Source of the DNA: Candidatus Eremiobacteria bacterium | GTDB taxonomy: Bacteria; Vulcanimicrobiota; Vulcanimicrobiia; Vulcanimicrobiales; Vulcanimicrobiaceae | NCBI GenBank assembly: GCA_963737065.1 | Contig: CAVTRC010000001.1 | Coordinates: 1,504,001-1,568,000, forward strand | Direction: 5' to 3' | DNA: 64,000 nt | Shown: in pieces, positions 6,659 through 58,265 of the stretch | Layout of the letters: each line of letters opens with the position of its first letter | Position numbering within the stretch: the first letter of the stretch is position 1 | Notes under the pieces: generated by a model | Told to the model about the DNA's origin: nothing | The model's database searches: none | What the model saw: only the letters and a program-made list of their open reading frames with translations | Position numbers and translations under genes: made by a program

Positions 6659-6852
6659 TCGTCTCTATCGCGCGAGCGCACCGGTCGAAAACCGGTCACA
6701 TAGCCGCTTGGCTCAGCGACGTGCAATCGGGCGAGCCGACGTGTCGGTGGAGGCCTCGGCACACACGATGAGCAGGGGTGGCCGGCTTCGCCACGCATAG
6801 CGTATTACGTTTGGCGTGTAAGGCGCGTCCCTATACGCTGAGCCGGCGCGGT

Positions 6853-7049
6853 TTGATCGTTCGCCGATTGGCGCGCGCGAAGGTGTTCGCATGCGTTCTG
6901 CGCGCGTTTGCTGCGTTGTAATGCCGCGACATCGCTAATGATCTTTCGGCCGTTCGTGCACGGCGGTTCCACAAACCTTCACCGTTCGCGAGCGACGCAT
7001 ACTCGTCGGGATACGCCGACTTACAATCACGAACCACTATAACGGCTGA
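6853..7049 (+). pseudogene. higB: Decayed HigB-family toxin remnant
   Basis: Fragments in shifting frames: (M)I/SFAD, ARLLRCNAATSL, NDLSAVRARRFHK..DAYS, LTITNHYNG*; stop TGA overlaps higA ATG (TGATG at 7047-7051). Confidence 0.55.
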
Positions 7050-7366
7050 TGCGAGAAACAAGCATGAAAGTATCACGCGTTCACCCTGGTGAAGTTCTTC
7101 GAACGAATTTTCTCGAGCCACTCAACCTGAGCCAAAACCAGCTCGCGCTTGCGCTGCACGTCCCGGCAACGAGGATAAACGAAATTATCAACGGTAAGCG
7201 CAGCATCAGCGCGGAGACGGCGCTTCGGCTCGGACGCTATTTCGGGACGACGCCGGAGTTCTGGCTGAACCTTCAGGCCCGCTACAATCTCGAGGTGGCC
7301 GAAGATGCAATGGCCGAAGCTATTACCCGCGACGTTCGGCCACGTGAAAAAGCTGGAAACGCCTAA
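7049..7366 (+). CDS. higA: HigA-family antitoxin (HTH XRE)
   Basis: VHPGEVL..FLEPL..RINEIINGKRSISAETALRLGRYFGTTPEFWLNLQ. Confidence 0.95.
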   Translation: MRETSMKVSRVHPGEVLRTNFLEPLNLSQNQLALALHVPATRINEIINGKRSISAETALRLGRYFGTTPEFWLNLQARYNLEVAEDAMAEAITRDVRPREKAGNA

Positions 7367-7390
7367 GTTTCGTATCGCGTTATTGCAATA

Positions 7391-41196: not shown

Positions 41197-41357
41197 AAAA
41201 TAATTAAAACGGAGCGCGACTTTTACCGGTGCGTTCCGTATCGTTTATCGTGTTTTTGGTTATGCCCAGGATGCCAGGCGTCTGCGCTGGGTATGGCCTC
41301 GAGCGACGATCAACCATTTCTTTCACGGCGCGTTGCGTGTTGTTACCGTGCTTTTGC

Positions 41358-42221
41358 TCATGGCCAGGGATGCGACGGCGACGGCGATGGATACGGCGTG
41401 GCCCGCGGATCGACCATCCCTTCGGACGTTGCTACATTGTGCGCTCCACCGTTGTCGCCATCGAAGTACGCCGTCTGCGCGTACGACATCCACCAACCGA
41501 GAACAAAGCCGCTATTGATCATGTCCGAACAGTCCTGGCCATTGCCATCGCCTGAATTGTAGTTCGTCAGTACGTTCGGGTCTTGAGGAAAGCTGTTCGT
41601 CGTAGTTGCAACCGACCAATAGCCACGATGATCTTCCGTAAGCCATTCATCTGAAACGACAGTCGATAGGCCGTGGGATTGGCGCGTACTGTTTTCCAAA
41701 GCGAGACATGCTTGTTCGGCGGACGTTAACGTTGTCAAACGAAACTTGCCGGAATACTCAATCGGATTCGCGGTTGCTCCGGGCGCGGGGCCGATCTTCG
41801 GCGCGGTCAGTGAATTCGCGCCGGGCGTCAACGTCACCATGTCGTGAATCGTCGGACGATTACTCGCGTCGGGATACGTGTCGTTTCCGATCACGAGTAA
41901 ATACGTGCCCGGCGCATGCGTGCACCGTGAACGAACCGTCCGCTGCCGTCGTGCCTTGCGGATTCGGTGTTGCGCCGGCGGTGTTTGGCTGCGAGACCAA
42001 CCTAAGATTCCCGCGAGTGCAGTGCCCGTTTCGTGGTCGACGAGTACACCCGACGCCGTCGCGGTCGCCGGCGTGGTGCTTGCCGTCGGAAACACGATCG
42101 GCGTTGATGTCGTCGACGGCGTGGTACCGCCGCCACCGCCGCCGCCGCATGCGACCAGTGCCGCACATAATACAATTCCGGCCGCGATATAACGCGGCGA
42201 CTCCATACGCCCGAAATGCAA
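41358..42221 (-). CDS. Lipoprotein with carboxypeptidase-regulatory-like and CAP-like domains (local frameshift likely)
   Basis: LVAC lipobox, G/T/P linker, SGVLVD.ETG, EQACLALENSTRQSHGL. Confidence 0.6.
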   Translation of the reverse strand: MHFGRMESPRYIAAGIVLCAALVACGGGGGGGTTPSTTSTPIVFPTASTTPATATASGVLVDHETGTALAGILGWSRSQTPPAQHRIRKARRQRTVRSRCTHAPGTYLLVIGNDTYPDASNRPTIHDMVTLTPGANSLTAPKIGPAPGATANPIEYSGKFRLTTLTSAEQACLALENSTRQSHGLSTVVSDEWLTEDHRGYWSVATTTNSFPQDPNVLTNYNSGDGNGQDCSDMINSGFVLGWWMSYAQTAYFDGDNGGAHNVATSEGMVDPRATPYPSPSPSHPWP

Positions 42222-42287
42222 AGTTCGTTCTCCTTAACGCGCCCGTCTCGTTTGCTCGCACAGCGAAAGGAAACCTGGCGAAAGAGT

Positions 42288-42743
42288 TTATTCCGCGTTA
42301 GCGCGCTTTAAAATATCGGTAAAGTGCTGCTCGGCCTGCGGATATAGACGCCGGTCCTCCTCGTTCATGCGCGCCTCCAGCGCCTCGCGTACGGTTGTCC
42401 ACTGCTCGAAAAACGCGGCGCGATCGCGATCGATCGATGCAGCATCGGGCCATCGCGCTTCCAGGTCGGCAAACGCGCGCATCACACCGCCCATCTCGAT
42501 GCGAAACTCGCGCGCGGTTGCGCGCACGATTTCGTCGGATGCGCGCGAGAGTGACGGGTAGAGCTGATCGTCTTCTAAGCGCAAATGCCGAACGAGAATC
42601 ACCTTCAATCGTTCGCGCAACAGCATCATCTCTTCGCCGGTGAACGGTTCACACGTCGGAAATTCGCTCAGCATATGACGCAAGACCGTGTGCTGCTGCC
42701 GGCACGTATGGAGCTCGATCCGCCGGTTCAGTGCGTCGCCCAC
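42288..42743 (-). CDS. Hemerythrin-like domain protein
   Basis: QH, HLRLEDDQLYP, RMNEEDRRLYP. Confidence 0.8.
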   Translation of the reverse strand: MGDALNRRIELHTCRQQHTVLRHMLSEFPTCEPFTGEEMMLLRERLKVILVRHLRLEDDQLYPSLSRASDEIVRATAREFRIEMGGVMRAFADLEARWPDAASIDRDRAAFFEQWTTVREALEARMNEEDRRLYPQAEQHFTDILKRANAE

Positions 42744-44514
42744 TTAATACACGGGCGATCCCGGCGCGCCGGGTGCGACTGAGCCGTCGTCTGGGGCGAA
42801 GACCAGTCGAAGCGGATAACTCGACCCGGCCTCAGGCATGGTCACGATTGTAACACGAACGAAGCCGCGCGCGGGAACGACGTATTGGCGCACCTTGTAG
42901 CGGCTAAACGGCGGCGCGCGATGCGATTGCACGAGCACGTTATCGATCAGGTACGTGCCGGTCGCGCCGCCGCCGCGCGGGTTCTCGTAGATCGCGATGC
43001 GCTGCGGCGTCGAGAGCGGGTTCTGCACGTTCACGACAAACGACTCGAGCACGCCGTAATCGCCCGCGAGCGCCTCGCCCGCGAGCGTGTTCGGCAGTGG
43101 AATCTGCCCGATCGGTAACTCGAGATAATCATCGGTGACGTTCCACTGCGTCGCGAAGTGAGAACTCGGGAATCTTATAGATCCCGCGCGCGTGCTTGAC
43201 CGTGCTCGTCAGCAGCTGCCCGGTGGTGAGCGCGTTGTCCGGATTATCGGTTGCGTCTTGCGCGACGAGCGTTAAGTGAATGTTCGGGCCTTCCAGCACG
43301 CGCAGCTGCAACAGATTCGCGACGATCGAGCCCGCCGGTAATTCTTGTGTCGCGAGCACCTGCGTCGAATTGCCGCCGATCTGCACGAGCCGCCCTTGAT
43401 TCTGCACGACGTTGACGAGAAACGCTTTGGTCGCCGCGTGGCCGACCTCCATCTCGTTTCTCGTCGGGCCGCCGCGACCGTCGATGTACTGCACGGTTGC
43501 GGGATCGCCGGAATGATTCTCCGCAACGAGCACGATGCGGCGGTCTTTCTTCGCTCGGCGGATTGTAATGGAAGTAGAGGAAGCGCGACGGCACGCCGCG
43601 CTCCAAATCGGCGGAGAACAGAATGCCGTTCTGCGTCAACTTTTCGGGAAAGTCGCTGACCATCAGCACGTCGGGCGAGATGCGCGGCACGGCGATGTTC
43701 TGCACGTAGACGTGCGTGTTGCCCGTGACGCTGAAGTACTGCTCGCCTTGAACGAGCACCGGAACTTCGAGATTCTTCTCCATGTCCTGACGCAGCGGCG
43801 AACGGATATCGACGTCGTCTTGCGAGACGACGACTTGCGCGCCCGGTTGCGTCTGCGTGCGCCGCACGATCGTGCGCTGCACGAGATCGCGCACGTAATC
43901 CGCGTTTGCGGGATCGCCGGTGAGGCGCACCTCGATGTAATTCGGAATCACGCCGGCGTTGTACGCGACGCGCACGCCGGCTGCGGCGCTCACGCCGCGC
44001 GAATCGGTGACGGTGATTACCGTCGATCCCGGCGCTTTGCCGTAAACCGAAATCGTTTGGTCTTGTTGATTCGCGGTGACGGTGAGCACGTTCGGATCTT
44101 GCACCGTCGCGGTGAACTGACCGAACGCGCCGTTGATGCGCGCGGTTTGCGTCGAACCGACCGGCACTTGCAGCGTGCCGGGATTGATGGTGATCGGTGG
44201 CGGCGTCGGCGTCGCAGTCGGCGGCGGTGACGACGTTCGCCGTCGGAACCGGCGACGGCGAACCGCTCGGCGTGACGCTCGCACTTGGCGTGACGAGCGG
44301 CTGGCGTGACGCTCGCGCTCGGCGTGACGCTCTCACTTGGCATCGGCGTCGCAATGCCGGGTGGCGGTGTTTCCGTCGGCGGTGGAGGCGACGGCGATTC
44401 CGTAACGGGAGCAGCGAATGGCGTCGCCGATGCATACGGCGTCGGTTCCGTTTGTTGCGCGCGCGCTGAAGACGCCCAACTGAGGGCGGCTCCAACGCAG
44501 GCAACGAGCATCAA
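42744..44514 (-). CDS. Secreted protein with Pro/Thr linker, Ig-like domain and DUF3370-like C-terminus (frameshifted into four ORFs)
   Basis: Signal peptide ending ARA-Q; GKAPGSTVITVTD; MVSDFPEKLTQNGILF. Confidence 0.6.
44266..44341 (-). repeat. Short coding tandem repeat (about 18 nt, PSASVT-like)
   Basis: Four GGCGTGACG cores at about 18-nt spacing. Confidence 0.7.
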
Positions 44515-44560
44515 CGAGCGTGCAAGCGCGTGGTGCAGGTGCTAACTCCCGAGTAGCAAG

Positions 44561-44581
44561 TTTATCCTGAGCGTCGAAGGG
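44561..44581 (+). repeat. Shortened palindromic repeat copy downstream of recQ
   Basis: TTTATCCTGAGCGTCGAAGGG abutting the stop at 44582. Confidence 0.6.
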
Positions 44582-46269
44582 TTAGGCGATCTTCGCAGTC
44601 TTGGCGGGAGTTACTGCCGATGCGAGCAGCGTCTTGTATCCGACGTTCGGGAAGAGCACGGTCACCAAATCTTTTTCCGCGCGCTCGATCGTGCCGGTGC
44701 CGAACTTCGGATGCGTCACCACATCGGAGATGCGGAAACCGCTCGTCGAGAAAGCCGCCTTCGACGGGCTCGGACGATGTTTCATCGGTCGTCGCGGCCG
44801 TCGTTCCGCACGCGCCGCGCGTCGCGCGCAGGCAGTTATCGCACGTGCCGCAGTTCGACGTGTCGTAATCCTCGCCGAAGTAGTTGAGGATGAAGCGCCG
44901 GCGGCACGAGGCGTTCTCCGCATACTGCAGCATCATCGCGAGCTTCGATTGGTCGTACGACTTCTTCGTCTCGTAATTCGCGAGGCTCAACACCAGCTCG
45001 CGATTCTTGCGCACCGCTTCGGTCAGCTTGTACGCCGATTTGCCGGCCGTTTCGATGTAGCCGGATTTCTTGAGCAGCGCGAGGATGACTTTGAGCTTGG
45101 TGAGCGGCAGCTGCAGAATCTTGCGCAGATCGGTCATCGAGACGCCGTCTTCTTGATCGCCGAAGACTTCGATCGTGCCGAAGACGCGCTGCACTTCTTC
45201 GATGTCGGGATACTTGCCGGTGAGGAAGTAATTCTGCACGCGCGTATCGCTCATGCGATAGATGAGGATGCAGCGCGACTTCTCGCCGTCGCGTCCCGCG
45301 CGTCCGGCTTCTTGCGTGTAGGCTTCGAGCGAGCCCGGCAGATCGTAGTGCACGACGAAGCGGATGTTCGACTTGTCGATGCCGAGGCCAAAGGCGTTGG
45401 TCGCGACGACCGCGCGAATCGTCTCGTTCATGAAGCACTCGTGCACGAGCGTGCGATCTTCTTTATGCAGTTTCGAGTGGTACACCGCCGCCGGAATGTT
45501 CATCGTGTCGGTCAGGTACTTCTGCACTTCGAGCGCGTTCTTGATCGTCGCGGTGTAGATGATGCCGGTGCCTTCGAGCGTGTCGCGTCCGGTGAAGAGC
45601 TGCTGCAGAATCTTGAACTTGTCGGCTTCTTTGTCGGCCTTGCGCGCTTCGTACTGCAGGTTCGGCCGATCGAACCCTTTGACGATCGGCTTGACGTGCT
45701 CGATGCCGAGCTGATGCAGAATGTCTTCGCGCACGGCCGGCGTCGCGGTCGCGGTGAGCGCGAGCACCGTCGGATGCTGCAGCCGTTTGATCACCGCGCC
45801 GAGCGCGAGATAGGCGGGGCGGAAATCGTGTCCCCACTGCGAGATACAGTGCGCTTCATCGACGACGAAGAGCGGCACGTTGATCGATTGCAGCAGCTCG
45901 AGAAAGCTTTGATCTTCGAGCTTTTCCGGCGTCGTGTACGCGATCCTGAATCGTGCCTTGGCCGATACGCTCGCGCGCGACGATTTCTTGTTCTTCGGAG
46001 AGCGTGGAGTTGAGCGCGACGACGTCGGTGATGCCGCGTTCGCGCAGCATGTCGAGCTGATCTTTCATTAACGCGATCAGCGGCGAAACGACGACGGTGG
46101 TGCCTTCGAGCAAGAGCGCCGGCAGCTGATACGTCAGGCTTTTGCCCGCGCCGGTCGCGAGAATCGCGAGCGTATCGTGCCCCGCCAATATGCGGGAGAT
46201 CACTTCTTCTTGGCCCGGATAGAATTGCTCGAATCCGAACTTGTCCTGAAGGGCAGAACGCAAATCCAC
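44582..46269 (-). CDS. recQ: RecQ-family helicase with C-terminal Tudor-like domain (frameshifted)
   Basis: ATGAGKS, VDEAHCISQWGHDFRPAY, QEAGRAGRDG, CRR..CGTCDNC zinc site. Confidence 0.93.
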
Positions 46270-46392
46270 GACGAGTTTCTATAGCCTCCCCACCGATGAG
46301 CATAACCCATCGGTGGCGCGAGAAGCATTACTTATGCAATATGATTACCCCCGGGCAAGCGGAGCCAAACTGCTTGCCTCGAAGTCCCCCGG

Positions 46393-48091
46393 GTGTCCCT
46401 CTATCGAACCTGGCGCCCCAAGTCGTTCGCCGATTTGGTCGGCCAAGACGCCGTTGTCCGCACCTTAACGCACGCAATCGAAAGCGGAAAACTCGCCCAC
46501 GCCTACTTGTTTTCCGGACCGCGCGGTTCCGGGCAAAACATCCGCCGCCAAAATTCTGGCACGGTGCATCGACTGCGTCAACGGGCCAACGGCCCACCCC
46601 GATAATACGTGCGAAAATTGTGTTGCTATGCTCAACGGCACGGCCTTGGACGTGTTGGAGATCGACGCAGCCAGCAATCGCGGCATCGATGAAATTCGCG
46701 CGTTGCGCGATGCGGTGAAGTTTGCGCCGAGCGCGATGCGCATGAAAGTGTACATCATCGATGAAGCGCACATGCTCACCAAAGAAGGCGCCAACGCGTT
46801 TCTGAAAACGCTCGAAGAGCCGCCGCCGCACGCCGTCTTCATTTTGGCGACGACGGAACCCGAAAAGTTGCCGGTCACCATCCTCTCGCGTTGCCAGCGC
46901 TATGCATTCCGCCGCATTTCGATTCCCGTGATGATCGAGCGGATGCGCGAGATCGCAACGTACGAAGGGATCAAAATCGACGACGACGCGCTCGCAACAA
47001 TTGCCTATCGCGCCGACGGCGGATTGCGCGACGCGCTCACGATGCTCGAACAAGCCGCGGCGTTCGCCGAAGGCAAGGTAACGGCCGCGACGATCGACTT
47101 GGCATTCGGCGCAACGGGCCGCGGCTACGCAAACGAGTTGATCGACGCGGTGTTGGCGCGCGACGCGTCGTCGATGCTGCGCATCATCGAAGAAGCGAGC
47201 GACGCCGGCACCGATATGCAGGTGCTGATCCGCTCGTTGATCGCGATGTTCCGCAATTTGCTTGTTGCGCGGGTCGATGCGGAGTTGCTGGCGCGCGATT
47301 TGGCGCCGGAAGATGCGCAGCGCGCGACGGAACGCGCGCAAGGTGTCGCGCAGGCGACGATCGTGCGCGCGTTGCGCGTGTTGAGCGACGCCGCTTCACT
47401 GGCGCGCACGGGTGGAAATCCGCGGCTCGAGTTGGAGACGGCGCTGCTGCGGTTTGTGTTGTCGAGCGAAGATCCGACACTGGAGGCGCTTTCGGCGCGC
47501 GTCGCCGCGATCGAAGAAAACGGTGTCACCGCTGCACGCGGCGCTTCGTCTGAAAGCGCCGCCATGAGCGCAGCTCCGCCAGGGGCGGAGTCGACGACCA
47601 CCCACATCACGCGCACGCAAACCCGAACCCGTCCCCCATCCGCACACCGCAACCGCCACCCGAGATCCCGGATCCCGAACCGCGAACCGAAGCCGGCACC
47701 GCAAGCTGCACGCGCGAAGCCGAGCAACGGCCCCGTGACCGTGCAAAAAGTCCGCGCAGCCTGGACGAACATCCGCGGCAAAGCCGAACACGAACGCGCG
47801 TCGTTGCGCGCGCCACTCTCCGGCGCAATGGTCGACTCAATCGACAGCGACGGCAACCTCCTGCTCAAGCTGCGAAGCAAACTCGACCTCGACATCATGA
47901 AGGGCCACGTGGCGACGCTGGAATCCGCGATCGCCGACGTCCTCGGCTCACCGATCAAGGTTCGGCTCGAATCCGGCGGCGGTGCAGCGCCGAGCGCACC
48001 GGTTGAAGAAGAGAAGCCGCAATTCGAAGAGCCGGCCGAAGACGCCGACGTGCTCTTCAACTACGCTAACGAAAGAATCCGCGAACGATGA
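46393..48091 (+). CDS. dnaX: DNA polymerase III gamma/tau (frameshift near 46535)
   Basis: [50 protein letters not shown]. Confidence 0.95.
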
Positions 48092-48396
48092 ATCAAGCGC
48101 AATTGATGGCGCAAGTCAAAAAGATGCAAGCCGAAATGGTGAAGGCGCAAGAAGAACTCGCCACCACCGTCGTCACCGGCAGCGCCGCAAACGGCATCGT
48201 CACCGTCGAAATGACCTGCGATCAACGCATGAAGTCAATCAAAATCGGCAAAGACGCCGTCGACCCCGACGACATCGAAACGCTCGAAGACCTCGTTACC
48301 GTAGCCGTCAACGACGCACTAACAAAAGCCGGCGAAAAAGCCCAACAACGCATGGGCGGCCTAACCGGCGGCATGCGCATCCCAGGATTGATGTGA
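48088..48396 (+). CDS. ybaB: YbaB/EbfC nucleoid-associated protein
   Basis: AVDPDDIETLEDLV..AVNDA; between dnaX and recR. Confidence 0.95.
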   Translation: MNQAQLMAQVKKMQAEMVKAQEELATTVVTGSAANGIVTVEMTCDQRMKSIKIGKDAVDPDDIETLEDLVTVAVNDALTKAGEKAQQRMGGLTGGMRIPGLM

Positions 48397-48439
48397 CGAC
48401 TATCACTCGCGCGGAACCGATTGCGAACGCTTCGCACAG

Positions 48440-48480
48440 TGTCATCCTGAGCGAAGCGCCGAAGGCGCGTAGTCGAAGGA
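48440..48480 (+). repeat. Long-form palindromic repeat copy directly upstream of recR
   Basis: TGTCATCCTGAGC-GAAGCGCCGAAGGCGCGTA-GTCGAAGGA; GAAGGA lies 4 nt before ATG. Confidence 0.88.
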
Positions 48481-48484
48481 CCGT

Positions 48485-49096
48485 ATGCCATCAACTGGAT
48501 CAATTGCCGGGCCTGTTCAAGCCCTTATCAACGAATTCTCGAAACTCCCAACCGTCGGCCCTAAAACCGCTGCACGGTTGGTGTTTTATTTGCTGAATCG
48601 TCCGCGTCACGAAGCGCAATCGCTCGCTGAAGCGATCCTTGCAGTCAAAGACAAGGTTCGCTTCTGTTCGATTTGTTTTTCGCTGACGGAGCACGATCCG
48701 TGCGATATCTGCAGCGACGAACATCGCGATGCAACGACGATTTGCGTCGTTGCGGAGGCGAAGGACATCTACGCGATCGAACGCACTGGCGTGTTCAAGG
48801 GCCGCTATCACGTTCTCGGTGGGCTGATTTCGCCGATGGACGGCATCGGCGCTGCGCAGCTGCGCGTTAAAGAGCTTGATTGAGCGAATCGGCGCGAGAA
48901 CGCCGTCTCGAAATCATCATCGCAACAAATCCAAACGCTGAAGGTGAGGCGACGGCGCTTTACTTGTCGCGATTGCTTCAGCCGCTCGACGTTAGCAGTG
49001 AGCCGCTTAGCCTACGGATTGCCAATTGGCGGCGATCTGGATTATGCGGACGAAGTCACGTTAGCAAAAGCGCTTGAAGGGCGTCGAGCGATTTGA
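48485..49096 (+). CDS. recR: Recombination mediator RecR (frameshifts near 48880 and 49000)
   Basis: [13 protein letters not shown]4 finger, [34 protein letters not shown]. Confidence 0.95.
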
Positions 49097-49099
49097 CCG

Positions 49100-50066
49100 C
49101 TATCGAAATAGCGGAAGGTCACGCGCTCGCCGATTTAATGGGACGAGTTCATTGCCGCTCTGGGAAATAAAGGCAACGCCGTTCTCTTCGAGGATCGTCG
49201 AAACGAAGCTTGTTTCTCGATTCGGCGCACTTCCAATGCTAGCACTGGAAATGCGTCTTGCAGTTGCGCGCGATAGCGGACTTTATAGTCAAGGAGCTGC
49301 CCCAGCCCATACCTCATCTTATTCACCGCGTCGCGAAGATTAGTAACGCTCTTTGCCTCAATCAGCTCGCGGTGTCCAGGGAATTCGACGACGAGATCAA
49401 GGTGATTGTTATACCAGAACCAGCCCCCTTTTTGTTTGACTTGCCTTCCTATCTTACGCAGGACGTTTTGATGATCTGCGCGAGCGCGCTCCTGCAACGC
49501 TGCTGATTCCTGACCGTCGAGCTTTCGATCGGGGTTCGGCACGTAGCCCGCACCCGGTGGGATTTCTTGAATCCTTCGAATGCCGTCTATCGGCGGCGTG
49601 ACGGCCGGACCGAGGTAGATTCCATTGCTGATTTCTTCGGTGCTTGGTAGAAGCGATATGCCGGCTGAGGAAACATCCGCTGCTGCAAGTATCCGCTGGT
49701 ATGTAATGTCGCTGAGGCGCGGACGGCAGAAACACCTTGGATCGGTCGATGCGACTCCGTCTCGTAATACCGCCCAAACTGGTCGCGCAACGGAACAAGG
49801 ATGGGGAACACTTCGTATTTCAATAAGGGAACGAATCGGTGCTTTTCATCGTCTAAATCTTCAAATGGGACGCCGAGGATTCCGTGACCAAAATAGTGAG
49901 ACGCATCAGGACGTGGGCGCCGTTTCCCCGCCGGCCGATAGTAGATGAATCGATCATACGGAACGATCCGCGAAAAGTATATGCGCGGATAGTGATAGAG
50001 CGAGCCCTCTGCATCCTTATAGATCCGCTCGCCAGGCTCAAAAATTTGTGAAAGGACGACGGGCAC
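49100..50066 (-). CDS. Putative restriction-type endonuclease: PUA/EVE-like N-domain plus PD-(D/E)xK C-domain (frameshifted)
   Basis: YKD..G..YHYP..DRFIYYR..YFGHG; HLDL..LIEAKS..RYGLGQLLDY; ORFs 49587-50066 and 49135-49542 join. Confidence 0.68.
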
Positions 50067-50141
50067 GCTTACTTCTTCCCCCGAGCGCGCTTACGGCCTC
50101 TAAAAGCTTATTAGTCGCATCGCTGCTCGGACGTTGAACTG

Positions 50142-50501
50142 CTACAGCTCATTGTATTTCTTCGCAGAGCCTCGAACGCGCGCGGTTGGATATTTTGTTC
50201 TGTTTTTTTCGAGCTTTTTTAGCAGGGACGTTCCGAGATCAATCTGCCAGTCATGGCTCATCAGGAGCAGCCAGTAGAAGATGTCGGCCATCTCATCGGA
50301 CAGGCCTTCGCGGTTAGCATTGAGGTAGTGTTCGTCTGTCTGATCAACCCACTGAAAGAGTTCCAGCAACTCCGAGGCTTCGAGCGAAAGGGAGATTGCT
50401 ACATCTTTCGCATTATGAAATTGTTTCCAGTCTCGCTCGTCGCGGAAGGCAATGACCGCCTCCGTTAGTGATGCGAGAGTGGGCGTTTGCGTGTCGCTCA
50501 T
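50142..50501 (-). CDS. MazG-like nucleotide pyrophosphohydrolase
   Basis: FRDERDWKQFHNAKD..EASELLELFQW..DEMAD..KYP. Confidence 0.93.
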   Translation of the reverse strand: MSDTQTPTLASLTEAVIAFRDERDWKQFHNAKDVAISLSLEASELLELFQWVDQTDEHYLNANREGLSDEMADIFYWLLLMSHDWQIDLGTSLLKKLEKNRTKYPTARVRGSAKKYNEL

Positions 50502-50522
50502 GAACGTGAGGTACGAGGCCAG

Positions 50523-52409
50523 GTGCAGCTTTACTGCGGACTAACGCCAGACTTCATACAAATCGAGGCGCAACGTCAAATTGTACGGCGCTTAGGGGTC
50601 AGCTTTTTCGAGTACTATCGCTATGAGCCGTCAGAATCCGAGAAGCGCTCTTGGCACAACTCGCTTCATGCGTTGAGCGCGCAGCTTAAGCGATCAAACT
50701 TCCTCAACCACGGGATTATCGTCGAGATGCAGCTTCCGCTCACCTCGCGCCGGATTGACTGCATGCTGACCGGGCACGATAGAGATGGCGCTCAACAAGC
50801 AGTACTCATCGAGCTCAAGCAGTGGACTGACGCAGCGCCAGCGGAGGAAGACCTGTGCGTGGAGGTACTTTATGGCGCAGGGGTTCGCACACAGCCTCAT
50901 CCGTCGGTCCAAGCCCGCGATTACGCTGAATATTTACGGCAGTACCGGTCGGCATTCTATGAAGACCCGACAGTTGCGCTCAGTCCGTGCGCATGGCTTC
51001 ACAACTTTCAGCATGACCCAGACTCGACTCTATTGGATCACACGAAGTTTGGTGCGGTCCTCGACGACGTCCCGCTTTTCGCAGCTAATGACAGCGACGC
51101 GTTCGGATCGTTCCTAGAGGATAGAATCGGACCTGGAAAAGGCGAGCCCGTGCTCAATCGTATCGTCAACAGCCGCTATGCACCTAGTAAGAAACTGATG
51201 GAACATACCGCGGCGGTCATCCAAGGGCGACGTGAGTACACGTTGTTAGACGAGCAGCTCGTTGCGTACGAGAAGATTATGCTCGCTTCACGAAAAGCGA
51301 CGAGGAGCAAAGCGCCGCGCACCGTCATCATCGTAGAGGGTGGCCCCGGAACCGGAAAATCTGTTATCGCCCTCAATGTGATGGCCGACTTGCTGAAAGA
51401 TGGAAAGAACGTTCAGCACGCTACTGGGTCGAAAGCGTTCACAGAAAATCTTCGCAACACGCTTGGCTCGAGAGCCGCGTATCAGTTTCGCTATTTCAAC
51501 AGCTTCGTAGATGCAGAGCAAGCAGAAATCGACGTGCTGATCTGCGACGAAGCGCACCGCGTTCGTGAGTCGAGCAACAATCGCTTCACGGCTAAGGGGC
51601 GGCGCTCCACGATGCCTCAAATCGAAGAGCTCATCTCTGCCTCAAGGGTTACTGCATTCTTCATCGACAACCAGCAGGTCGTTCGCCCCGGTGAAATCGG
51701 TTCAACAGCCGTCATCAGAGAAGCTGCTCAAACGCTCGGTGCGAGAGTCGTTGAGGAACGACTGGAAGCGCAGTTCCGTTGCGCGGGGTCCGACGAGTAC
51801 ATCGACTGGGTCGATGGGCTGCTTGGCATCCGCGAGACGGACGTCGAGCGATATGATGTGTCGAATAACTTTCAGTTTCGGATGTTCGACTCGCCAGAAT
51901 CGCTTGACGACGAAATCCGGCGGCGCGCGGCCGACGGACAATCGGCGCGTCTAACTGCTGGATTCTGCTGGCCTTGGTCTAACCCTGAAGGCGGAAGGCT
52001 TGTCGAGGACGTCGCTATCGGGTCGTTCGCGAAGCCTTGGAACGCAAAACCGGATGCCGGGCGGCTTCCGATTGGCGTGCCCAAGTCGAACTTCTGGGCC
52101 ACGGATGCAAACGGCATAAATCAAGTTGGTTGTGTCTACACCGCGCAAGGCTTTGAGTTTGATTATGTCGGGGTGATTTGGGGTCGCGACCTGATTGTTC
52201 GCAATGGTGAATGGGTTGCCGACCGACGTGCGTCTTTTGACATGGCGGTGAGACGCGCGAAAGATGAGCACTTCAAGGTGCTTGTAAAAAATACATACCG
52301 CGTCCTTCTCACTCGTGGTTTGAAGGGTTGTTTCGTCTTCTTTCAAGACGCAGAGACGCGTTCGTTTTTCGAGAGTCATCTTGAAGCATACCAAAGCAGA
52401 GGTCATTGA
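50523..52409 (+). CDS. DUF2075 (Schlafen group 3-like) helicase with N-terminal PD-(D/E)xK domain
   Basis: RIDCML..LIELKQW; GGPGTGKS; DEAH; VGCVYTAQGFEFDYVGV; YRVLLTRG; GTG at 50523 preferred as start. Confidence 0.9.
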   Translation: MQLYCGLTPDFIQIEAQRQIVRRLGVSFFEYYRYEPSESEKRSWHNSLHALSAQLKRSNFLNHGIIVEMQLPLTSRRIDCMLTGHDRDGAQQAVLIELKQWTDAAPAEEDLCVEVLYGAGVRTQPHPSVQARDYAEYLRQYRSAFYEDPTVALSPCAWLHNFQHDPDSTLLDHTKFGAVLDDVPLFAANDSDAFGSFLEDRIGPGKGEPVLNRIVNSRYAPSKKLMEHTAAVIQGRREYTLLDEQLVAYEKIMLASRKATRSKAPRTVIIVEGGPGTGKSVIALNVMADLLKDGKNVQHATGSKAFTENLRNTLGSRAAYQFRYFNSFVDAEQAEIDVLICDEAHRVRESSNNRFTAKGRRSTMPQIEELISASRVTAFFIDNQQVVRPGEIGSTAVIREAAQTLGARVVEERLEAQFRCAGSDEYIDWVDGLLGIRETDVERYDVSNNFQFRMFDSPESLDDEIRRRAADGQSARLTAGFCWPWSNPEGGRLVEDVAIGSFAKPWNAKPDAGRLPIGVPKSNFWATDANGINQVGCVYTAQGFEFDYVGVIWGRDLIVRNGEWVADRRASFDMAVRRAKDEHFKVLVKNTYRVLLTRGLKGCFVFFQDAETRSFFESHLEAYQSRGH

Positions 52410-52497
52410 AGCGCACTCGCGCAGCTTTCATGTGCCGTTAACCTAATTCACCAATCGCACTCAACCGCTAGCGCGAGAATGGCATCGGAGGAATCTG

Positions 52498-54113
52498 ATG
52501 TCTACTCAATCGCTTACCGCCCCTCGAGGGCTTCCAGAGATCGGCCGGTCGCTCGGCAGAGCCTTTAGCAACATTCCGCGATGGCTGCTCATCGCGCTCG
52601 CGGCGCTCGTGATCGTGGGCCTGATCGCAGGCACGGTCATTTCGCGCACGCAGAGCGCGACGCAGGTCGTCACCGCTCCGGTCGTCCGTCAGACGCTGAC
52701 GCAGTCCGTAACCGCGTCCGGTACGGTGAACGCGCAAAACAGCGTTACCGTCGGCAGCCAAGTTTCGGGAACGATCTCGCAGCTCTACGCCGACTACAAC
52801 TCAAAGGTCAAACAAGGCCAAGTCCTCGCGCGCATCGATCCGAGCAACTTCCAAGCGCAGCTCGCGAAAGATGAAGCCGCTCTCGCGCAAGCGCAGGCGC
52901 AAGCCGGCGAAGCCGCCGCAAACGCCAACGGCGCGGGCGCGGGCGTAACCGTCGCGCAGGCAAACGCGAACGCGCAAGAAGCCGCCGCAAACGCCGCCAA
53001 GACGAACATCGCCAAGGCGCAATCAGCACTGACGCTCGCGCAGCAACAGCTCGCGCGCGATCAACAGTTGCTCGCGCAAGGCTACATCGCGCAAGCAACG
53101 GTGCAGAGCGGATCAGTCGACGGTCGCGCAAGACGAATCGGCCGTAGCCCAGGCACAAGCCGCCTACGCGCAAGCGCAAGCGCAAGCGCAGGCGAGCAAC
53201 GCAACGATCGGACAAAACGGTTCGACCGCGCAAGCGCAAGCCGCAAGCGCAGACGCTGCGCAAGCCGCCGTGCAAGCCGCGGAAGCCACCGTGCAAACGG
53301 ATAAACTCAATCTCGAACACACCGTCATCACCTCGCCGGTGAACGGTACGGTCGTCTCGCGCGCCGTGTCGGTCGGTCAGACGGTTGCCGCATCGCTGCA
53401 AGCGCCGACGCTCTTCACGATCGCGCAAGACCTCTCCAAGATGGAAGTCGACATCAACGTCGGCGAGCCGGATATCGGCGGCGTGAAACCGGGCGATACG
53501 GTTGACTTCACGGTGCTCGCGTACCCGAACCAAACGTTCCACGGCACCGTGCAACAGGTTCGCATCAATCCGCAAACCGTGAACAACGTCGTAACGTATG
53601 ATGTCGTCGTCGACGTCAACAACAAGGACAACAAGTTGCTTCCGGGCATGACGGCCAACGCGACGATCAACGTCGCGAGCTCGCCGAACGCCCTCGTGGT
53701 TCCGCTCACCGCACTGCACACGCGTAGCGCCCTTCGACAGGCTCAGGGTGACACGGGGGCGGCTCAAGGTGACACGGCGAGCGCACAACCGCAAGCCGCC
53801 GGCGCATCGCAGTCGCCGTGGGGCGGCACGGCGGGCACGAGCAGCGGCAGCATCGCGACGGGACAAACGGCGTCGCTGATGGTGCAACGCGCGGGCAAAC
53901 TGCAACGCGTGAAGGTCCAAGTCGGACTCGTCACCGCCACGCAGGCGGCGGTAACGCCGACCGACGGCAGCACGCTCAGCGAAGGTGACAACGTCGTCAC
54001 AGCATTCAGCGGAACGCGCAGCGGCAGCGGTAAGAACGGCCAAAACGCGCCAGTCGCGCAGCCCGCTTCAGGGCGGCGGCGCCCCGCGTGGCGCAATGCG
54101 CGGCATGCCGTAA
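52498..54113 (+). CDS. MacA-like efflux periplasmic adaptor (frameshifted)
   Basis: VGSQVSGTI..DYNS.VK.GQ; ITSPVNG; GQTVAASLQAPTLF; LLPGMTAN. Confidence 0.9.
53730..53774 (-). repeat. Palindromic repeat copy plus partial tandem copy, in-frame in the adaptor gene
   Basis: CCCTTCGACAGGCTCAGGGTGACA then GGCTCAAGGTGACA; reads ALRQAQGDTGAAQGDT. Confidence 0.85.
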
Positions 54114-54115
54114 CG

Positions 54116-54137
54116 CTTCGACAGGCTCAGGGTGACA
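54116..54137 (-). repeat. Palindromic repeat copy just after the adaptor gene
   Basis: CTTCGACAGGCTCAGGGTGACA. Confidence 0.85.
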
Positions 54138-54192
54138 CTGAGTACGCCATCAGCAATCGGGCGAAGCGCATGCGCGTGGGTATGCTGCGCGA

Positions 54193-55189
54193 ATGAGCGA
54201 CGAACAACCATCAGACGAGACGAGCATTTGTTGGAACGGTTGGGACGGGAATTGCGGCAGCTGCGTTGACGCAAAACGCGTCCGCGCAAGGCAGCACACA
54301 AGGATGAGCCGGCGCTTCCGAATCCGACCGACCGGTATCAGAAAACGTTTCCGATGCAGCAACAACCGTGGCCCGGTTTGCAATCGAAGATGGATCCGCG
54401 ACCGGATTGCGGCGAGACATCATATCAAGGCACGCGGGCGGCTACGCGGCCGCAAAATGCTTGTCACGGGCGCAGATTCCGGCATCGGGCGCGCCGCAGC
54501 GATCGCATTTGCGAAAGAAGGCGCCGACGTTGCGCTCAATTATCTTCCTCAAGAAGAAGCCGACGCGCGCGAAGTCGTGCAAGTGGTCGCACTGCGCGGC
54601 CGCAAAGCCGTGCCGATTCCGGGCGACATTCGTGAAGAGGGTTCTGCCGCAACTCGTCGATCGCGCCGTGCAGCAGCTCGGCGGACTCGATACCATCGTG
54701 AACGTCGCCGGCAGGCAGAACGCGATCGAAAACATCGAGGATCTCTCAACCGAACATATCGATTGGACGTTCAAAACCAACGTCTATGCGATGGTGTGGA
54801 TCGTGAAGGCCGCGTTGCCGCACTTGCGTCCCGGGTCAGTCATTATCAATACCGCATCCGAGCAGGGCTACAATCCCGACCCCTGGCTCGTCGATTACGC
54901 GATGACGAAAGCCGCGATCGTGAATTTCACGAAGTCGATGGCCAAGCAACTGGCAAAGCGCGGTATTCGTGTCAATGCGGTCGCGCCCGGACCGTTCTGG
55001 ACGGCACTGCAAATTACCGGCGGAACGATGCCCTCGAAGATCCCGACGTTCGGTCAGCAAACGCCGCTCGGTCGCGCCGGGCAACCGGTAGAAATCGCGC
55101 CGGTCTACGTCGCGCTTGCGGCGGGTGATCTATCGTACGGAACGGGCGGCATTTGGGGCGACACCGGCGGCAATCCCGGGCCGGGTTAG
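54193..55189 (+). CDS. YghA-like SDR oxidoreductase with twin-arginine-like leader (frameshifted)
   Basis: [42 protein letters not shown]. Confidence 0.88.
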
Positions 55190-55570
55190 TTCGGAAGGTT
55201 TGCGAAAACTTCGTCGACGTCGAATTGAAGCCACGGCAATTCGATACTGACGAAACGCTCGCCCATCACTAGCGTCGTCGCGCCGACGCGCGTAATTGCG
55301 CGAATCGTTCGCTTCTCCGGAAGCACGTCGAATGCGACGATCGTGCCTTTCGCGAGATACGCTTGCATCTTCCACTCCACGTTCTTAGTTTGTCGCCTGG
55401 CGAACGAATTTCGAACGCTACGTCGGGTGCAAACGGCGGCTCTTCCCGCTGCTTGTGATCCAACGCATTGAGACGCTCGCGCGACACGAAGGCAACGTCC
55501 GGCACGAGCGAGGTCGGCGGGTCGCCCGGTGCGCTCAACCAAAAGCGCCATTCGGTCGCGACATCGCTGC
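55186..55570 (-). pseudogene. Uma2/DUF820 endonuclease, apparently N-truncated and frameshifted
   Basis: LVPDVAFV..APDVAFEIRSPGD; usual N-terminal part not recognisable. Confidence 0.65.
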
Positions 55571-55708
55571 GATCCCGGGCTCGATATAGGGCTTCTCGTC
55601 GATCGATCGCATCGCGGTCCTCGATTCCTCACGACTACCGTATCACTGCCCGCGCTGTGACAGCGCGAGACGGCAAAGGGACTGCCGGGAAACGAGCTGC
55701 GCCGCCGG

Positions 55709-55743
55709 TTGACGCAGCGTACAGACTAGACTAAGCTTAGTCG
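55709..55743 (+). promoter_or_regulatory. Sigma70-type promoter with palindromic operator
   Basis: TTGACG-17 nt-TAAGCT; perfect palindrome GACTAAGCTTAGTC at 55729-55742. Confidence 0.75.
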
Positions 55744-55983
55744 ATGGAAATGGTGAACGTCCACGAGGCGAAAACGCACTTCTCCCGTCTGGTGGACAAG
55801 GCGGCCGCCGGTGAGGAAATCGTCATTGCAAAGGCCGGCAAACCCGTTGCCAAACTTGTGCCGCTCGATAAACCCGAAGGGAAGCGACAGCTCGGCCAGC
55901 TTGCTCATCTTGGAATAACTATACCGGACGACTTTGATGATCCGTTGCCTGATGACATTCTCGACGCATTTGAAGGTCGATGA
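55744..55983 (+). CDS. Phd/YefM-family antitoxin
   Basis: VNVHEAKTHFSRLVD.AAAGEEIVIAKAGKPVAKLVP. Confidence 0.95.
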   Translation: MEMVNVHEAKTHFSRLVDKAAAGEEIVIAKAGKPVAKLVPLDKPEGKRQLGQLAHLGITIPDDFDDPLPDDILDAFEGR

Positions 55984-56366
55984 GGATTCTTCTTGACACG
56001 CATCTGCTGCTGTGGTCGCATATGAACGATCGAAGGCTTTCGCAGACGGTTCGCGAGCTGCTCGAATCTCGAGAAAACGACGTGTACTTCAGCGCCGCAA
56101 GTATTTGGGAAATTGCGATCAAAGCGCAGTTAAAGCGGCTGGAATCTACCGTCGACCCGCAGCAAATCGTACGTGCGGCCCTCGATAGCGATTTTGAAGA
56201 ACTGCCGGTAACCGCCAGCAGCGCAGTTTTAGTCAGCGCACTGCCGATGCATCACCGCGACCCGTTCGACCGCCTTTTGGTAGCTCAGGCGATGTCGGTG
56301 CCGCTTACCCTCATGACGGCAGACCCGCAGCTGCTGCAATATTCCGAACTGGTACGTCTCGTATAA
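55980..56366 (+). CDS. vapC: VapC-family PIN toxin
   Basis: LLDTH, SAASIWEIAIK, HHRDPFDRLLVAQA, TAD. Confidence 0.95.
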   Translation: MRILLDTHLLLWSHMNDRRLSQTVRELLESRENDVYFSAASIWEIAIKAQLKRLESTVDPQQIVRAALDSDFEELPVTASSAVLVSALPMHHRDPFDRLLVAQAMSVPLTLMTADPQLLQYSELVRLV

Positions 56367-56372
56367 AACAAG

Positions 56373-57452
56373 ATGGCGAAAAAGGTCGATAAGCGCGTCT
56401 TCGATGTGAGAGCTGCCGTCAGCGACGATCCCTCAACGTGGCGGCTCGTCGCGGTAAGTTCCGATGCAGTGCTTCCCGAGTTTTACCGCACGATCCAAGG
56501 CGCGTTCGAGTGGGTGTGGCCTACGTTTGCAAAGATGCTCGTTGGCGAAGCGATGTTCTTCGGCGGCAAAGGATCGCGCACGCCGCTGCGGCGCGTCTTC
56601 TCCATCGGCGATCGAGGAATGCTCTCGTTCGCCGATGACGACGGCGATACGATCGTCGTGCGTTTCGAAGTGTTGCGCGTCTACGAAGTTCCGTCTCGCC
56701 GCCATTACCCAAAGGTGTTGGACGGCGCGGGCATGTACCGGCCCAGCTACTCCGAGAAACAGTTTTGGTGCGACACGAGCACGTGGGTCGCCCAAGAGCT
56801 TGCGCGTTACGGATTCAGGGAGCAACGCCCGACTCGAGCGGCCGATTCGAAGCGCCACCTTTCGCGCGATGAATGCGACGAGCTGGAAGCGCTGATGCAA
56901 CGCCGCGATCCGGCGTGCTCCGGACCGATGCATGGTTCGATAACGTGCCTCCACGGTTTCCTCACGTGCGTGATTTCCGGGCCGCTCATTCTGCCGTCAG
57001 AATGGTTTCCCGTCGTGTTCGGTGACGAAAACAACGACGTGCCCTGGGAAACGATGCAGGAAGTCCAGCGCGCGACTTCGCTCGTCATGCAGTTCTACAA
57101 CGGCATTGTGGACGATCTGCGCAGCGACGACTTTCGCATCATCATGGATCCAATTGCCGATGGTCCCGAGGCGTTGGGCCGCGTCGAGAATTGGTGTCGC
57201 GGCTTTCTGGTCGGAACGGCGCTACGCGCCGACGAGTGGCAAAGCGCGATGCAAGATCAGTATCTGGACGCCCGCATGACGGCAATTATTGCGCTCGGCC
57301 GCCCTGATGCGCCGCCGGTTTTCGATCCCGTGAAGCACCCGCGCGAATACCAGGAAGCGCGCGAAGTTCTCCCGCAGTGCGCACTCGACATGTATCGTTG
57401 GTGGAGGCGTGCAACGCCGAAAGGTTCGCCTCCTCCGTTGCGCGCGGTGTGA
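56373..57452 (+). CDS. UPF0149/YecA-like protein with pRiA4b-ORF3-like N-terminus
   Basis: LHGFLT..SGP.ILPSEW; WCRGFL.G; N-part WRLVAV..IQGAFEW..YPKVLDG. Confidence 0.68.
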   Translation: MAKKVDKRVFDVRAAVSDDPSTWRLVAVSSDAVLPEFYRTIQGAFEWVWPTFAKMLVGEAMFFGGKGSRTPLRRVFSIGDRGMLSFADDDGDTIVVRFEVLRVYEVPSRRHYPKVLDGAGMYRPSYSEKQFWCDTSTWVAQELARYGFREQRPTRAADSKRHLSRDECDELEALMQRRDPACSGPMHGSITCLHGFLTCVISGPLILPSEWFPVVFGDENNDVPWETMQEVQRATSLVMQFYNGIVDDLRSDDFRIIMDPIADGPEALGRVENWCRGFLVGTALRADEWQSAMQDQYLDARMTAIIALGRPDAPPVFDPVKHPREYQEAREVLPQCALDMYRWWRRATPKGSPPPLRAV

Positions 57453-57532
57453 TTCTTCTCATTCGGCTTTAACCCGCCGTCGCCGCGCGCTCTCAAGCGC
57501 CGGCGGTACGATTCCACTCGGAGGAATCTAGA

Positions 57533-58265
57533 GTGGAATTCAAGGGTGACGACCCGGTCGTCAAAGTGAAGGACCTGCGCAAGGTCTACACGCTCGGTGA
57601 CGCGCAAGTCATTGCGCTTGCCGGCATCGATCTCGAGATTCATCGCGGCGAATTCGTCGCGGTGATGGGCCCATCGGGCTCGGGCAAGTCGACGTTCATG
57701 CAGATCAGCGGGCTGCTCGACAACCCGACGTCGGGACAGTATTGGTTCGAAGGCCAAGACGTCTCGCATCTCGATCGTGATGCGCGCGCCGACATCCGCA
57801 GCCGCCGGCTCGGCTTCGTCTTCCAAGCGTACAACTTGCTCTCGCGAACGACCGCGCTCGAGAACGTCGAGTTGCCGATGGTTTACGCGGGCGTGCCGGA
57901 AACGGAACGCAAGCGAATCGCGCTTGCCAAGATGGACGATCGTCGGCGTCGACCATCTCGCCGATCATGCGCCGAACCAAATGTCGGGCGGACAACAACA
58001 GCGCGTCGCGATCGCGCGATCGCTCGTGAACAATCCGGGACTCATTCTCGCGGACGAACCGACCGGCGCGCTCGACACGAAAACGTCGGAAGACGTCATG
58101 CGCATCTTCAAAGAATTAAACGAAGAAGAGGGCATCACGATCATGCTGGTCACGCACGAACCGGATATCGCGGCGCACGCGAAGCGGATCGTGACGTTCC
58201 GCGACGGCCGCATCGTGAGCGACCGCCCTTCGACAGCTCAGCGTGACAAGGGGGAAGCAGCATGA
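57533..58265 (+). CDS. MacB/LolD-type ABC ATPase (frameshift near 57937)
   Basis: [41 protein letters not shown]. Confidence 0.93.
58226..58248 (-). repeat. Palindromic repeat copy in the 3' coding tail of the ABC ATPase
   Basis: CCCTTCGACAGCTCAGCGTGACA. Confidence 0.75.

Follow-up and report, generated by a model that had tools for sequence, protein, structure and literature searches.

We describe a block of three genes, here called genes A, B and C, that lies between recR and a gene for an HlyD-type efflux adaptor in the genome of a Candidatus Eremiobacteria bacterium, and we read it as a small islet of chromosomal defence genes in a spot of variable content. Gene A would supply a candidate type IV (modification-dependent) restriction endonuclease, while genes B and C, encoding a MazG-like nucleoside triphosphate (NTP) pyrophosphohydrolase and a DUF2075 nuclease-helicase, would form a conserved module that elsewhere stands beside unrelated modification-dependent nucleases. 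We give this reading a probability of about 0.5. The evolutionarily conserved unit is the MazG-like/DUF2075 pair together with an interchangeable modification-dependent nuclease, not the exact trio. An earlier note on the same DNA had proposed that all three genes act as a module against phages with modified bases; as an account of function, this idea is plausible and the best available.

The window, i.e. the whole stretch of DNA that was analysed, comprises 64,000 nt (GenBank assembly GCA_963737065.1, contig CAVTRC010000001.1, positions 1,504,001-1,568,000 of the forward strand). Unless a locus is named, coordinates are positions in the window. Loci L001-L080 are gene A loci in relatives, and L083-L104 are loci from plasmid and phage collections.

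Results

Gene content of the locus

The coding regions of the block and its flanks are as follows.

46628-48091, dnaX, upstream of ybaB; its N-terminus is apparently encoded in a separate open reading frame (ORF), 46296-46718
48088-48396, ybaB, between dnaX and recR
48485-49096, plus strand, recR (Pfam RecR_HhH, RecR_ZnF and Toprim_4), conserved, bounding the variable spot on the left
49100-50066, minus strand, gene A, candidate reader-nuclease of PUA-like-PD-(D/E)xK type; three frames align end to end with homologues of ~322 amino acids (aa)
50142-50501, minus strand, gene B, predicted MazG-like NTP pyrophosphohydrolase (PF12643), 119 aa, intact
50502-50522, divergent spacer of 21 nt separating the start of gene B from the GTG at which gene C probably begins
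50523-52409, plus strand, gene C, predicted DUF2075/Schlafen-group-3 helicase of superfamily 1B (SF1B) with an N-terminal PD-(D/E)xK motif (PF09848), intact
52498-54196, plus strand, HlyD-type efflux adaptor, the conserved right flank, located by tblastn of ORFs from L003 and L001 against the window

All three coding regions of the earlier note are present at the coordinates it gave, gene A as pieces in three frames. The block had been placed directly after the recR stop, which is correct: the stop codon of gene A (49100-49102) lies 3 nt from that of recR (49094-49096). Between recR and the HlyD-type gene the window holds genes A, B and C only, and no DNA methyltransferase. The ORF of gene C opens at a TTG at 50487, and its probable start, the GTG at 50523, was chosen from the length of homologues (620-632 aa).

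The MazG-like enzyme and the nuclease-helicase

Gene B matches PF12643 with an E-value of 1.9e-13 (50.9 bits, cut-off 27), and Pfam thereby confirms the prediction of a MazG-like, all-alpha NTP pyrophosphohydrolase, as the name first given to it implied. There are 2478 homologues. In two sets of sequences (38 and 32) residues E41, E44, E47, E70 and D73 do not vary, and the acidic metal ligands are intact; we take these metal-binding residues to be the motif written E-x2-E ... E-x2-D.

Gene C matches PF09848 (Schlafen group 3 helicase, formerly DUF2075) over residues 278-621 with an E-value of 1.9e-90, and has at least 7774 homologues. Across 49 of these the Walker A motif (273-280) and E343 are invariant and D342 nearly so. 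Within the N-terminal 100 residues E68, D79 and E97-L-K99 are invariant in the same 49 sequences, and they fall on consecutive predicted strands (64-70, 77-85 and 91-99). The assignment of a PD-(D/E)xK nuclease is based on this motif and the secondary structure; Pfam gave no match for residues 1-278, and a NERD look-alike (0.84) serves as a lead only. An AlphaFold model of the protein has a mean predicted local distance difference test (pLDDT) score of 88.8, and its Foldseek matches include RecD2 (1e-11), SLFN11 (1e-10), RecD, SLFN14, Dda and Dna2. A profile search of the PDB with the gene C alignment returned only a Walker A match to HelD. The early description as a DUF2075 nuclease-helicase is thus borne out by PF09848, by the invariant E68...D79...E97-x-K99 and by the SF1B fold (RecD2, Dda, SLFN11), and a predicted SF1B helicase with an N-terminal PD-(D/E)xK motif, in the architecture of the nuclease-helicase Nhi, is supported.

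Nhi (S. epidermidis SERP2475) and the Nhi-like proteins likewise combine an N-terminal PD-(D/E)xK nuclease with an SF1B helicase that overlaps DUF2075, and Dda and Dna2 are among the structural neighbours in that comparison as well. Gene C differs from them in being paired with a MazG-like gene, both here and in many relatives, and in matching the PADLOC models only in part: the models of Nhi (470 positions) and AbiO cover at most residues 249-407 of 640, with E-values of ~3e-12 (for Nhi, residues 249-405 and 3.1e-12). Gene C as an orthologue of Nhi was rejected on this partial match, the architecture alone being in common. The best PADLOC match is the candidate model PDC-S41 (5.6e-21), which is also partial.

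A widespread pair

In a plasmid collection, homologues of gene C occur in 107 records and homologues of gene B in 99, with closely parallel lists of taxa. A MazG-type gene lies within 3 kb in 3 of the 11 DUF2075-anchored plasmid loci that were opened (Priestia, Halalkalicoccus and B. thuringiensis pKK1), and when the MazG-like gene served as anchor, a DUF2075 gene was found next to it in B. mycoides and in another locus of pKK1. Comparison of coordinates by hand placed the pair also in Nocardiopsis eucommiae and in at least 20 further plasmids of the B. cereus group. In Ligilactobacillus it adjoins a type I restriction-modification (R-M) system. All 4 phage-collection records with a gene C homologue also encode a gene B homologue no more than 600 bp away. 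The two genes are adjacent in L003, from Eremiobacterota, and their head-to-head arrangement in the window is also seen in L003 and in record MT836681 (L102). For metagenomes there is a hint from contig sizes alone, the closest homologues of genes C and B being found on contigs of equal size (12,105 and 2,858 bp).

The MazG-like/DUF2075 genes form a widespread pair that spans phyla, including a haloarchaeon, and is apparently undescribed. The current PADLOC 2.0 defence models miss it, and no description of such a pairing or system was found in the literature searched, with the supplements of the Nhi (10.1101/776245) and Millman (10.1101/2022.05.11.491447) preprints outside the search. One copy, in L101 (PP438423, Microcystis phage Mwe-JY31; 1521-7033), forms a single string with a TPR protein before and an unknown 416-aa protein after the MazG-like and DUF2075 genes. 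PP438423 was deposited as a complete 22-kb phage genome, so either this copy of the pair is phage-borne or the region is not truly phage.

Nucleases and hydrolases beside the pair

Twelve loci with the pair were inspected gene by gene, and in 8 of them a reader-type or HNH nuclease adjoins it. The neighbours are as follows.

Window and L003: PUA-like-PD-(D/E)xK nuclease (predicted)
L083 (Priestia): MrcB_N-HNH protein
L090 and L094: HNH protein
L092: HNH_2 protein
L102 (MT836681): AspBHI_N+Mrr_cat protein, whose start overlaps the DUF2075 stop (PADLOC mREase_II, 1e-154)
L104: PLD-helicase-DUF3427 protein, SauUSI-like, 1033 aa
L084: hypothetical protein and EEP-family nuclease; no reader-nuclease
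L100: type I R-M genes; no reader-nuclease
L101: TPR protein and unknown protein; no reader-nuclease
L103 (MT838580), 3064-7459: DUF2075, MazG-like, a second DUF2075 fused to GIY-YIG, and a Ham1-like NTPase, in one string

To judge by the sequences, the nuclease slot beside the pair is functional rather than familial, as non-homologous proteins fill it. Because AspBHI-like, SauUSI-like, MrcB_N-HNH and similar enzymes recur there, the idea that modified DNA is the target gains support.

Some of these loci carry further hydrolases. Two helicase-nucleases and two nucleotide-cleaning enzymes stand together in L103. Nudix/MutT-type genes lie one or two genes upstream of the nuclease-MazG-DUF2075 strings in L083 (960-1334; Priestia) and L092 (1543-1926; B. 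thuringiensis), which echoes the linkage of SauUSI and Nudix genes reported in 2011.

A candidate reader-nuclease family

Searches with the pieces of gene A and with the full-length relative P0001 found no model in Pfam (even at E-values up to 10), NCBIfam or PADLOC, and no match among PDB sequences. The family comprises 180 proteins at an E-value of 1e-3 or below, among 442 candidates, with a mean column identity of 63% over 50 aligned sequences. It is nearly confined to metagenome-assembled genomes (MAGs) of Eremiobacterota/Vulcanimicrobiota, and 115 relatives were found in a species-level genome set. D224, E237-x-K239 and Q257, a PD-(D/E)xK signature, are invariant in 50 sequences. The catalytic residues of the fused nuclease domain are therefore intact, and PD-(D/E)xK proteins are among its Foldseek matches.

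An AlphaFold model built from the alignment (pLDDT 87.2, predicted template modelling score 0.83) was compared with the PDB by Foldseek. The best matches have E-values of 2e-3 to 0.1, none at 1e-3 or below, and they fall into two coherent groups. One consists of PD-(D/E)xK nucleases (Cdn1, the nuclease region of DrmA, XisH, AF1548, Card1 and Can2). The other consists of PUA-superfamily readers (S. marinus McrB-N, ASCH and EVE proteins, YTH and THYN1) and also contains the modification-dependent enzymes VcaM4I (6yex), MspJI (4f0q) and AspBHI (4oc8). For the reader-fold matches McrB-N 6n0s, ASCH 5y6c, EVE 2p5d/1zce/2eve and YTH 4rdo, E-values range from 4e-3 to 0.1 and target-normalised template modelling scores are ~0.5-0.6.

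A search without a profile, using the N-terminal piece, retrieved 123 proteins, of which 59 distant ones were scanned for partner domains. In 33 of these the N-terminal domain is joined to NOV_C/DUF3883, in 13 to HNH, in 2 to other domains, and in 11 to no Pfam domain; one NOV_C protein also has an EVE domain. Since the domain is repeatedly fused to nucleases, as expected of a target-recognition module, our preferred reading of the modelled protein is a PD-(D/E)xK nuclease with a PUA-like reader attached, with moderate confidence in the reader half. The same architecture had been proposed at the outset; it holds at the level of the fold (Foldseek E-values of 2e-3 to 0.1), but no sequence model backs it and the gene is not in one frame in the window. 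Gene A would accordingly represent a lineage-restricted candidate type IV restriction endonuclease from a family that no existing model covers.

Known modification-dependent enzymes of the PUA superfamily (TspA15I/VcaM4I, EVE-HNH and MspJI/AspBHI; PMC6765204) offer the closest comparison. Like them, gene A is predicted to encode a single chain of ~300 aa in which a reader-like beta-barrel precedes the nuclease, and it has no adjacent cognate methyltransferase in the window. At the sequence level, by contrast, it matches none of EVE, SRA, ASCH and YTH, and its Foldseek E-values are above 1e-3; its predicted nuclease is of the PD-(D/E)xK type, whereas that of the VcaM4I group is HNH. In L001 two D12 methyltransferases lie 3-5 kb from gene A, beyond McrBC.

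In the window the frame of gene A is lost twice, near 49718 and near 49236, each time by a single base. Its pieces, the ORFs 49587-50066 and 49135-49542 and a 3'-terminal stretch in a third frame, match successive parts of intact proteins of 320-326 aa. At each change a homopolymer is one base short of the relatives' frame (CC for CCC and TT for TTT), and both fall outside the PD-(D/E)xK motif. The frame of recR shifts three times in its last third (48880-49096) relative to intact relatives, and that of the HlyD-type adaptor changes once, near 53100; genes B and C are intact. This pattern looks like single-base consensus errors of a long-read assembly, though gene A may instead be truly decaying. 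A close relative has intact versions of gene A (P0001, 322 aa, 94% identity), gene B (P0363, 97%) and gene C (P0243, 94%), each from a single contig of 3,421,103 bp.

A variable defence spot

For neighbourhood counts 80 of the 115 gene A loci were kept, 52 of them with at least 3 kb on both sides. A DpnI-family enzyme lies near gene A in 29 of the 80 loci (within 300 bp in 18), an HNH_2 enzyme of ~310 aa in 21 (within 300 bp in 19), and one or both within 5 kb in 42; a 445-aa HNH protein stands beside gene A in 13. PADLOC calls the DpnI-type neighbour a methyl-directed REase (restriction endonuclease), and the HNH_2 protein of L001 (310 aa) matches VcaM4I (6yex), an enzyme dependent on 5-hydroxymethylcytosine or 5-methylcytosine, at an E-value of 4e-6 and equal length. 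Gene A is thus usually found in the company of other methyl-dependent nucleases (DpnI-family, VcaM4I-like HNH and McrBC). Eremiobacterota genomes often line up several modification-dependent nucleases.

Three genomes allow the spot itself to be compared, in the following gene orders.

Window: recR / gene A / MazG-like / DUF2075 / HlyD
L003: recR / HNH_2 / gene A / MazG-like / DUF2075, plus an F420-type oxidoreductase
L001: recR / HNH_2 / gene A / McrC / McrB-like AAA_5 / hypothetical / two D12 methyltransferases / transposase / oxidoreductase

In L001 and L003, too, HlyD homologues follow beyond the variable region. The HNH_2 gene that these two closest genomes have between recR and gene A (11026-11958 in each locus) is missing in the window. 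With differing defence cargo between conserved flanks, recR on one side and oxidoreductase/HlyD on the other, the recR-efflux interval is a variable defence spot. In L001 the D12 methyltransferases, the hypothetical gene, AAA_5 and McrC (4418-9995) lie directly upstream of gene A and, with the transposase, make up a larger defence island.

A different arrangement was seen in L018 (9033-12854), a MAG labelled Proteobacteria. Gene A is apparently split there into two ORFs and flanked by a divergent HNH_2 gene; a DUF2075 gene follows directly, no MazG-like gene is present, and a WYL/WCX regulator (13912-14988) lies 1 kb further on.

Discussion

Relation to known systems

The earlier note knew of no characterised system with this trio, and the literature searched agrees; partial precedents are found in Lutz 2019 and Xu 2011. 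Xu 2011 (PMC3141236) reports a conserved gene for a MutT/Nudix-like pyrophosphohydrolase linked to SauUSI in at least 60 genomes, with a function unassigned at the time, and the linkage is repeated in the legend to Fig. 9 of Bell 2020 (PMC7641849). As far as the cited parts of these papers go, our locus resembles SauUSI and its Nudix partner in that a type IV nuclease is genetically linked to a small NTP pyrophosphohydrolase. It differs in the hydrolase, all-alpha and MazG-like here and Nudix there, and in its additional, separate DUF2075 helicase-nuclease. The two themes meet in L104, where the MazG/DUF2075 locus itself has a SauUSI-like gene.

Modification-dependent enzymes with DUF3427-DUF3883 adjoin a DUF2075 NTPase in the McaZI group, and a joint assay was proposed (Lutz 2019, PMC6765204). 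Here too a putative modification-dependent nuclease stands beside DUF2075, with joint action proposed; the reader and nuclease domains are others, and the passages of Lutz 2019 on the group do not mention a MazG-like partner. For the nuclease-helicase, the Bari 2021 preprint (10.1101/776245) states that immunity by Nhi needs both the PD-(D/E)xK and the helicase motifs.

Proposed mechanism

The analysis establishes the gene content, the domain architecture, the intact catalytic motifs, the setting in a variable spot and the repeated adjacency of the genes; the defence function, the modification dependence, the substrates and any cooperation between the proteins are inferred. In the mechanism that we propose, the reader-nuclease encoded by gene A would nick or cut modified phage DNA. 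Entering at the breaks, the DUF2075 helicase-nuclease could then unwind the DNA and degrade it, as shown for Nhi. The MazG-like enzyme would hydrolyse non-canonical deoxynucleoside triphosphates (dNTPs), either from the pool of modified precursors of the phage or from modified nucleotides salvaged from degraded phage DNA. Such clean-up would keep modified nucleotides out of phage replication and also out of host DNA, so that the type IV enzyme would spare the chromosome of its own cell.

Nucleotide-depleting defences such as dCTP deaminase and dGTPase, and the mammalian enzyme DCTPP1, restrict viruses or protect the genome by hydrolysing (modified) dNTPs. Gene B belongs to another enzyme family, and the likeness may extend only to the shared idea of dNTP hydrolysis.

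A wider claim, which we advance tentatively and consider somewhat unlikely, is that genes B and C make up the conserved core of an undescribed defence module that spans phyla and works with exchangeable modification-dependent nucleases, coupling the destruction of modified phage DNA with the clean-up of modified dNTPs. If true, the clean-up would deprive the phage of its special precursors and at the same time solve the risk of self-targeting by type IV enzymes, and it would account for the linkage of a Nudix gene to SauUSI and for the Ham1-like gene of L103. Type IV enzymes and Nhi-type nuclease-helicases are each known, whereas the small NTP pyrophosphohydrolases beside them have been unexplained since the remark of 2011. 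The locus and its analogues lead to a testable proposal, in which sanitation of the nucleotide pool would act as an accessory or self-protection arm of modified-DNA restriction. New here, set against the known kinds of type IV restriction and Nhi-type nuclease-helicase, are a reader-nuclease family of ~322 aa that has no model and might be of use as a source of modification-specific enzymes, and the widely distributed, apparently undescribed gene pair.

Evidence against a defence islet and alternative explanations

Several observations weigh against a defence islet built from gene A and a conserved B-C module. The trio had been put forward as a unit, and this did not hold up when co-occurrence across the 80 gene A loci was tested by tblastn and phmmer: the exact trio occurs in 1 of 80 (L003) and in the 94%-identical relative, and only the MazG-like/DUF2075 pair is conserved. 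A MazG-like gene was found in that single locus, and DUF2075 in 3 of 80 (L003, L018 directly downstream, and L040 at 6 kb). Searching the plasmid collection with P0001 by tblastn gave no gene A homologue, and hhalign showed homology of gene A to 0 of 3 nucleases that stand beside DUF2075 on plasmids. The PUA-fold assignment draws on Foldseek E-values above 1e-3 and on language-model look-alikes (EVE+NucS_C, 0.88), the latter being leads only. The frame changes in gene A, if real, would mean that the islet is partly decayed in the window. On the other side, metagenomic homologues of genes A and C occur on contigs of equal size (2,970, 3,147, 9,014 and 219,752 bp), a hint from sizes alone.

The pair, too, has its exceptions. 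No MazG-like gene lies within 3 kb in 8 of the 11 DUF2075-anchored plasmid loci (two of Hymenobacter, four of Streptomyces, and those of Methanosphaera and Nocardiopsis flavescens). A close MazG-like gene in Paenibacillus adjoins topoisomerase III, and more distant ones (32-41% identity) stand beside DUF2075 in 0 of 5 loci. Many cases of adjacency come from closely related Bacillus plasmids, and the independent events are far fewer than the records. Finally, Nhi and the Nhi-like proteins work as single genes that need no partner, according to the cited parts of the Bari (10.1101/776245) and Millman 2022 (10.1101/2022.05.11.491447) preprints, the latter on a nuclease+DUF2075 'Nhi-like' protein that defends alone.

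These points feed the best-surviving alternative, credible though doubtful in our view, that three independent genes share a defence hot spot: gene A as a stand-alone type IV enzyme, gene C as a stand-alone Nhi-like protein, and gene B as a passenger or as the partner of gene C, with gene A uncoupled from both. In 77 of the 80 loci neither gene B nor gene C accompanies gene A, its usual neighbours are other self-sufficient nucleases, the preprints just cited describe nuclease-helicases that defend alone, the nuclease next to the pair is of another family in each lineage, and the spot in L001 carries quite different cargo. Independence sits less well with the 8 of 12 loci in which the neighbours of the pair are reader- or HNH-type nucleases and not other kinds of defence gene. 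Nuclease and pair are moreover co-directional and tightly spaced or overlapping in L083, L094, L102 and L104, and the theme repeats with other pyrophosphohydrolase folds, Nudix with SauUSI and Ham1-like in L103. We retain on this evidence the reading of a variable-spot islet with a conserved B-C module.

It is improbable that the MazG-like protein acts as a regulator or 'antidote' of a toxic DUF2075 effector, in an abortive-infection or toxin-antitoxin-like pair, for example by removing an activating nucleotide signal or substrate, with modified DNA irrelevant. Close spacing of genes B and C recurs in many lineages, in head-to-head as well as co-directional order, one Nhi homologue was toxic upon induction according to the cited part of the Bari preprint (10.1101/776245), and the pair loci L084, L100 and L101 have no reader-nuclease. 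Against such a role, modified-base readers recur beside the pair, none of the inspected loci contains a nucleotide-signal synthase, and DUF2075 homologues are often found without a MazG-like gene.

Least probable is a housekeeping role, with MazG-like pool cleaning, DNA repair by DUF2075 next to recR and gene A as a decaying remnant: the block does adjoin the dnaX-ybaB-recR repair/replication cluster and resembles ybaB and recR in G+C content, the frame of gene A is broken in the window, and MazG-family proteins are classic house-cleaning enzymes (general knowledge and the abstract of PMC10014863), but recR and ybaB accompany gene A in only 2 of 80 loci (L001 and L003), the equivalent spot in L001 holds McrBC, methyltransferases and a transposase, on plasmids, as in records of the phage collection, the pair has restriction enzymes, type I R-M genes and transposases for neighbours, anti-phage activity is reported for DUF2075 nuclease-helicases in the cited parts of the Nhi and Nhi-like preprints, and gene A is intact in the 94% relative.

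Composition and boundaries of the block

The block (49097-52409) has a G+C content of 0.542, compared with 0.611 for the window. Among sliding windows of 3.3 kb, whose G+C content has a standard deviation of 0.023, 0.3% are as low. The genes ybaB (0.557) and recR (0.551) are as low as the block, and the AT-richer stretch starts near 48090, not at the recR stop. Composition was rejected as proof of insertion, since ybaB and recR are equally AT-rich. The earlier note had seen an AT-richer inserted block; the low G+C content stands, whereas the boundary at recR does not, and composition alone marks no insertion. Repeats flanking the boundaries are only short ones at chance level, no Rfam families (including tRNA-like ones) were found in 40000-58000, and no mobility genes mark the block boundaries in the window. 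At the block itself, no sigma-70-like promoter was found, and two terminator-like sites are below the count in shuffled sequences. Insertion or replacement at this spot is supported because the gene content from recR to HlyD differs among the three related genomes.

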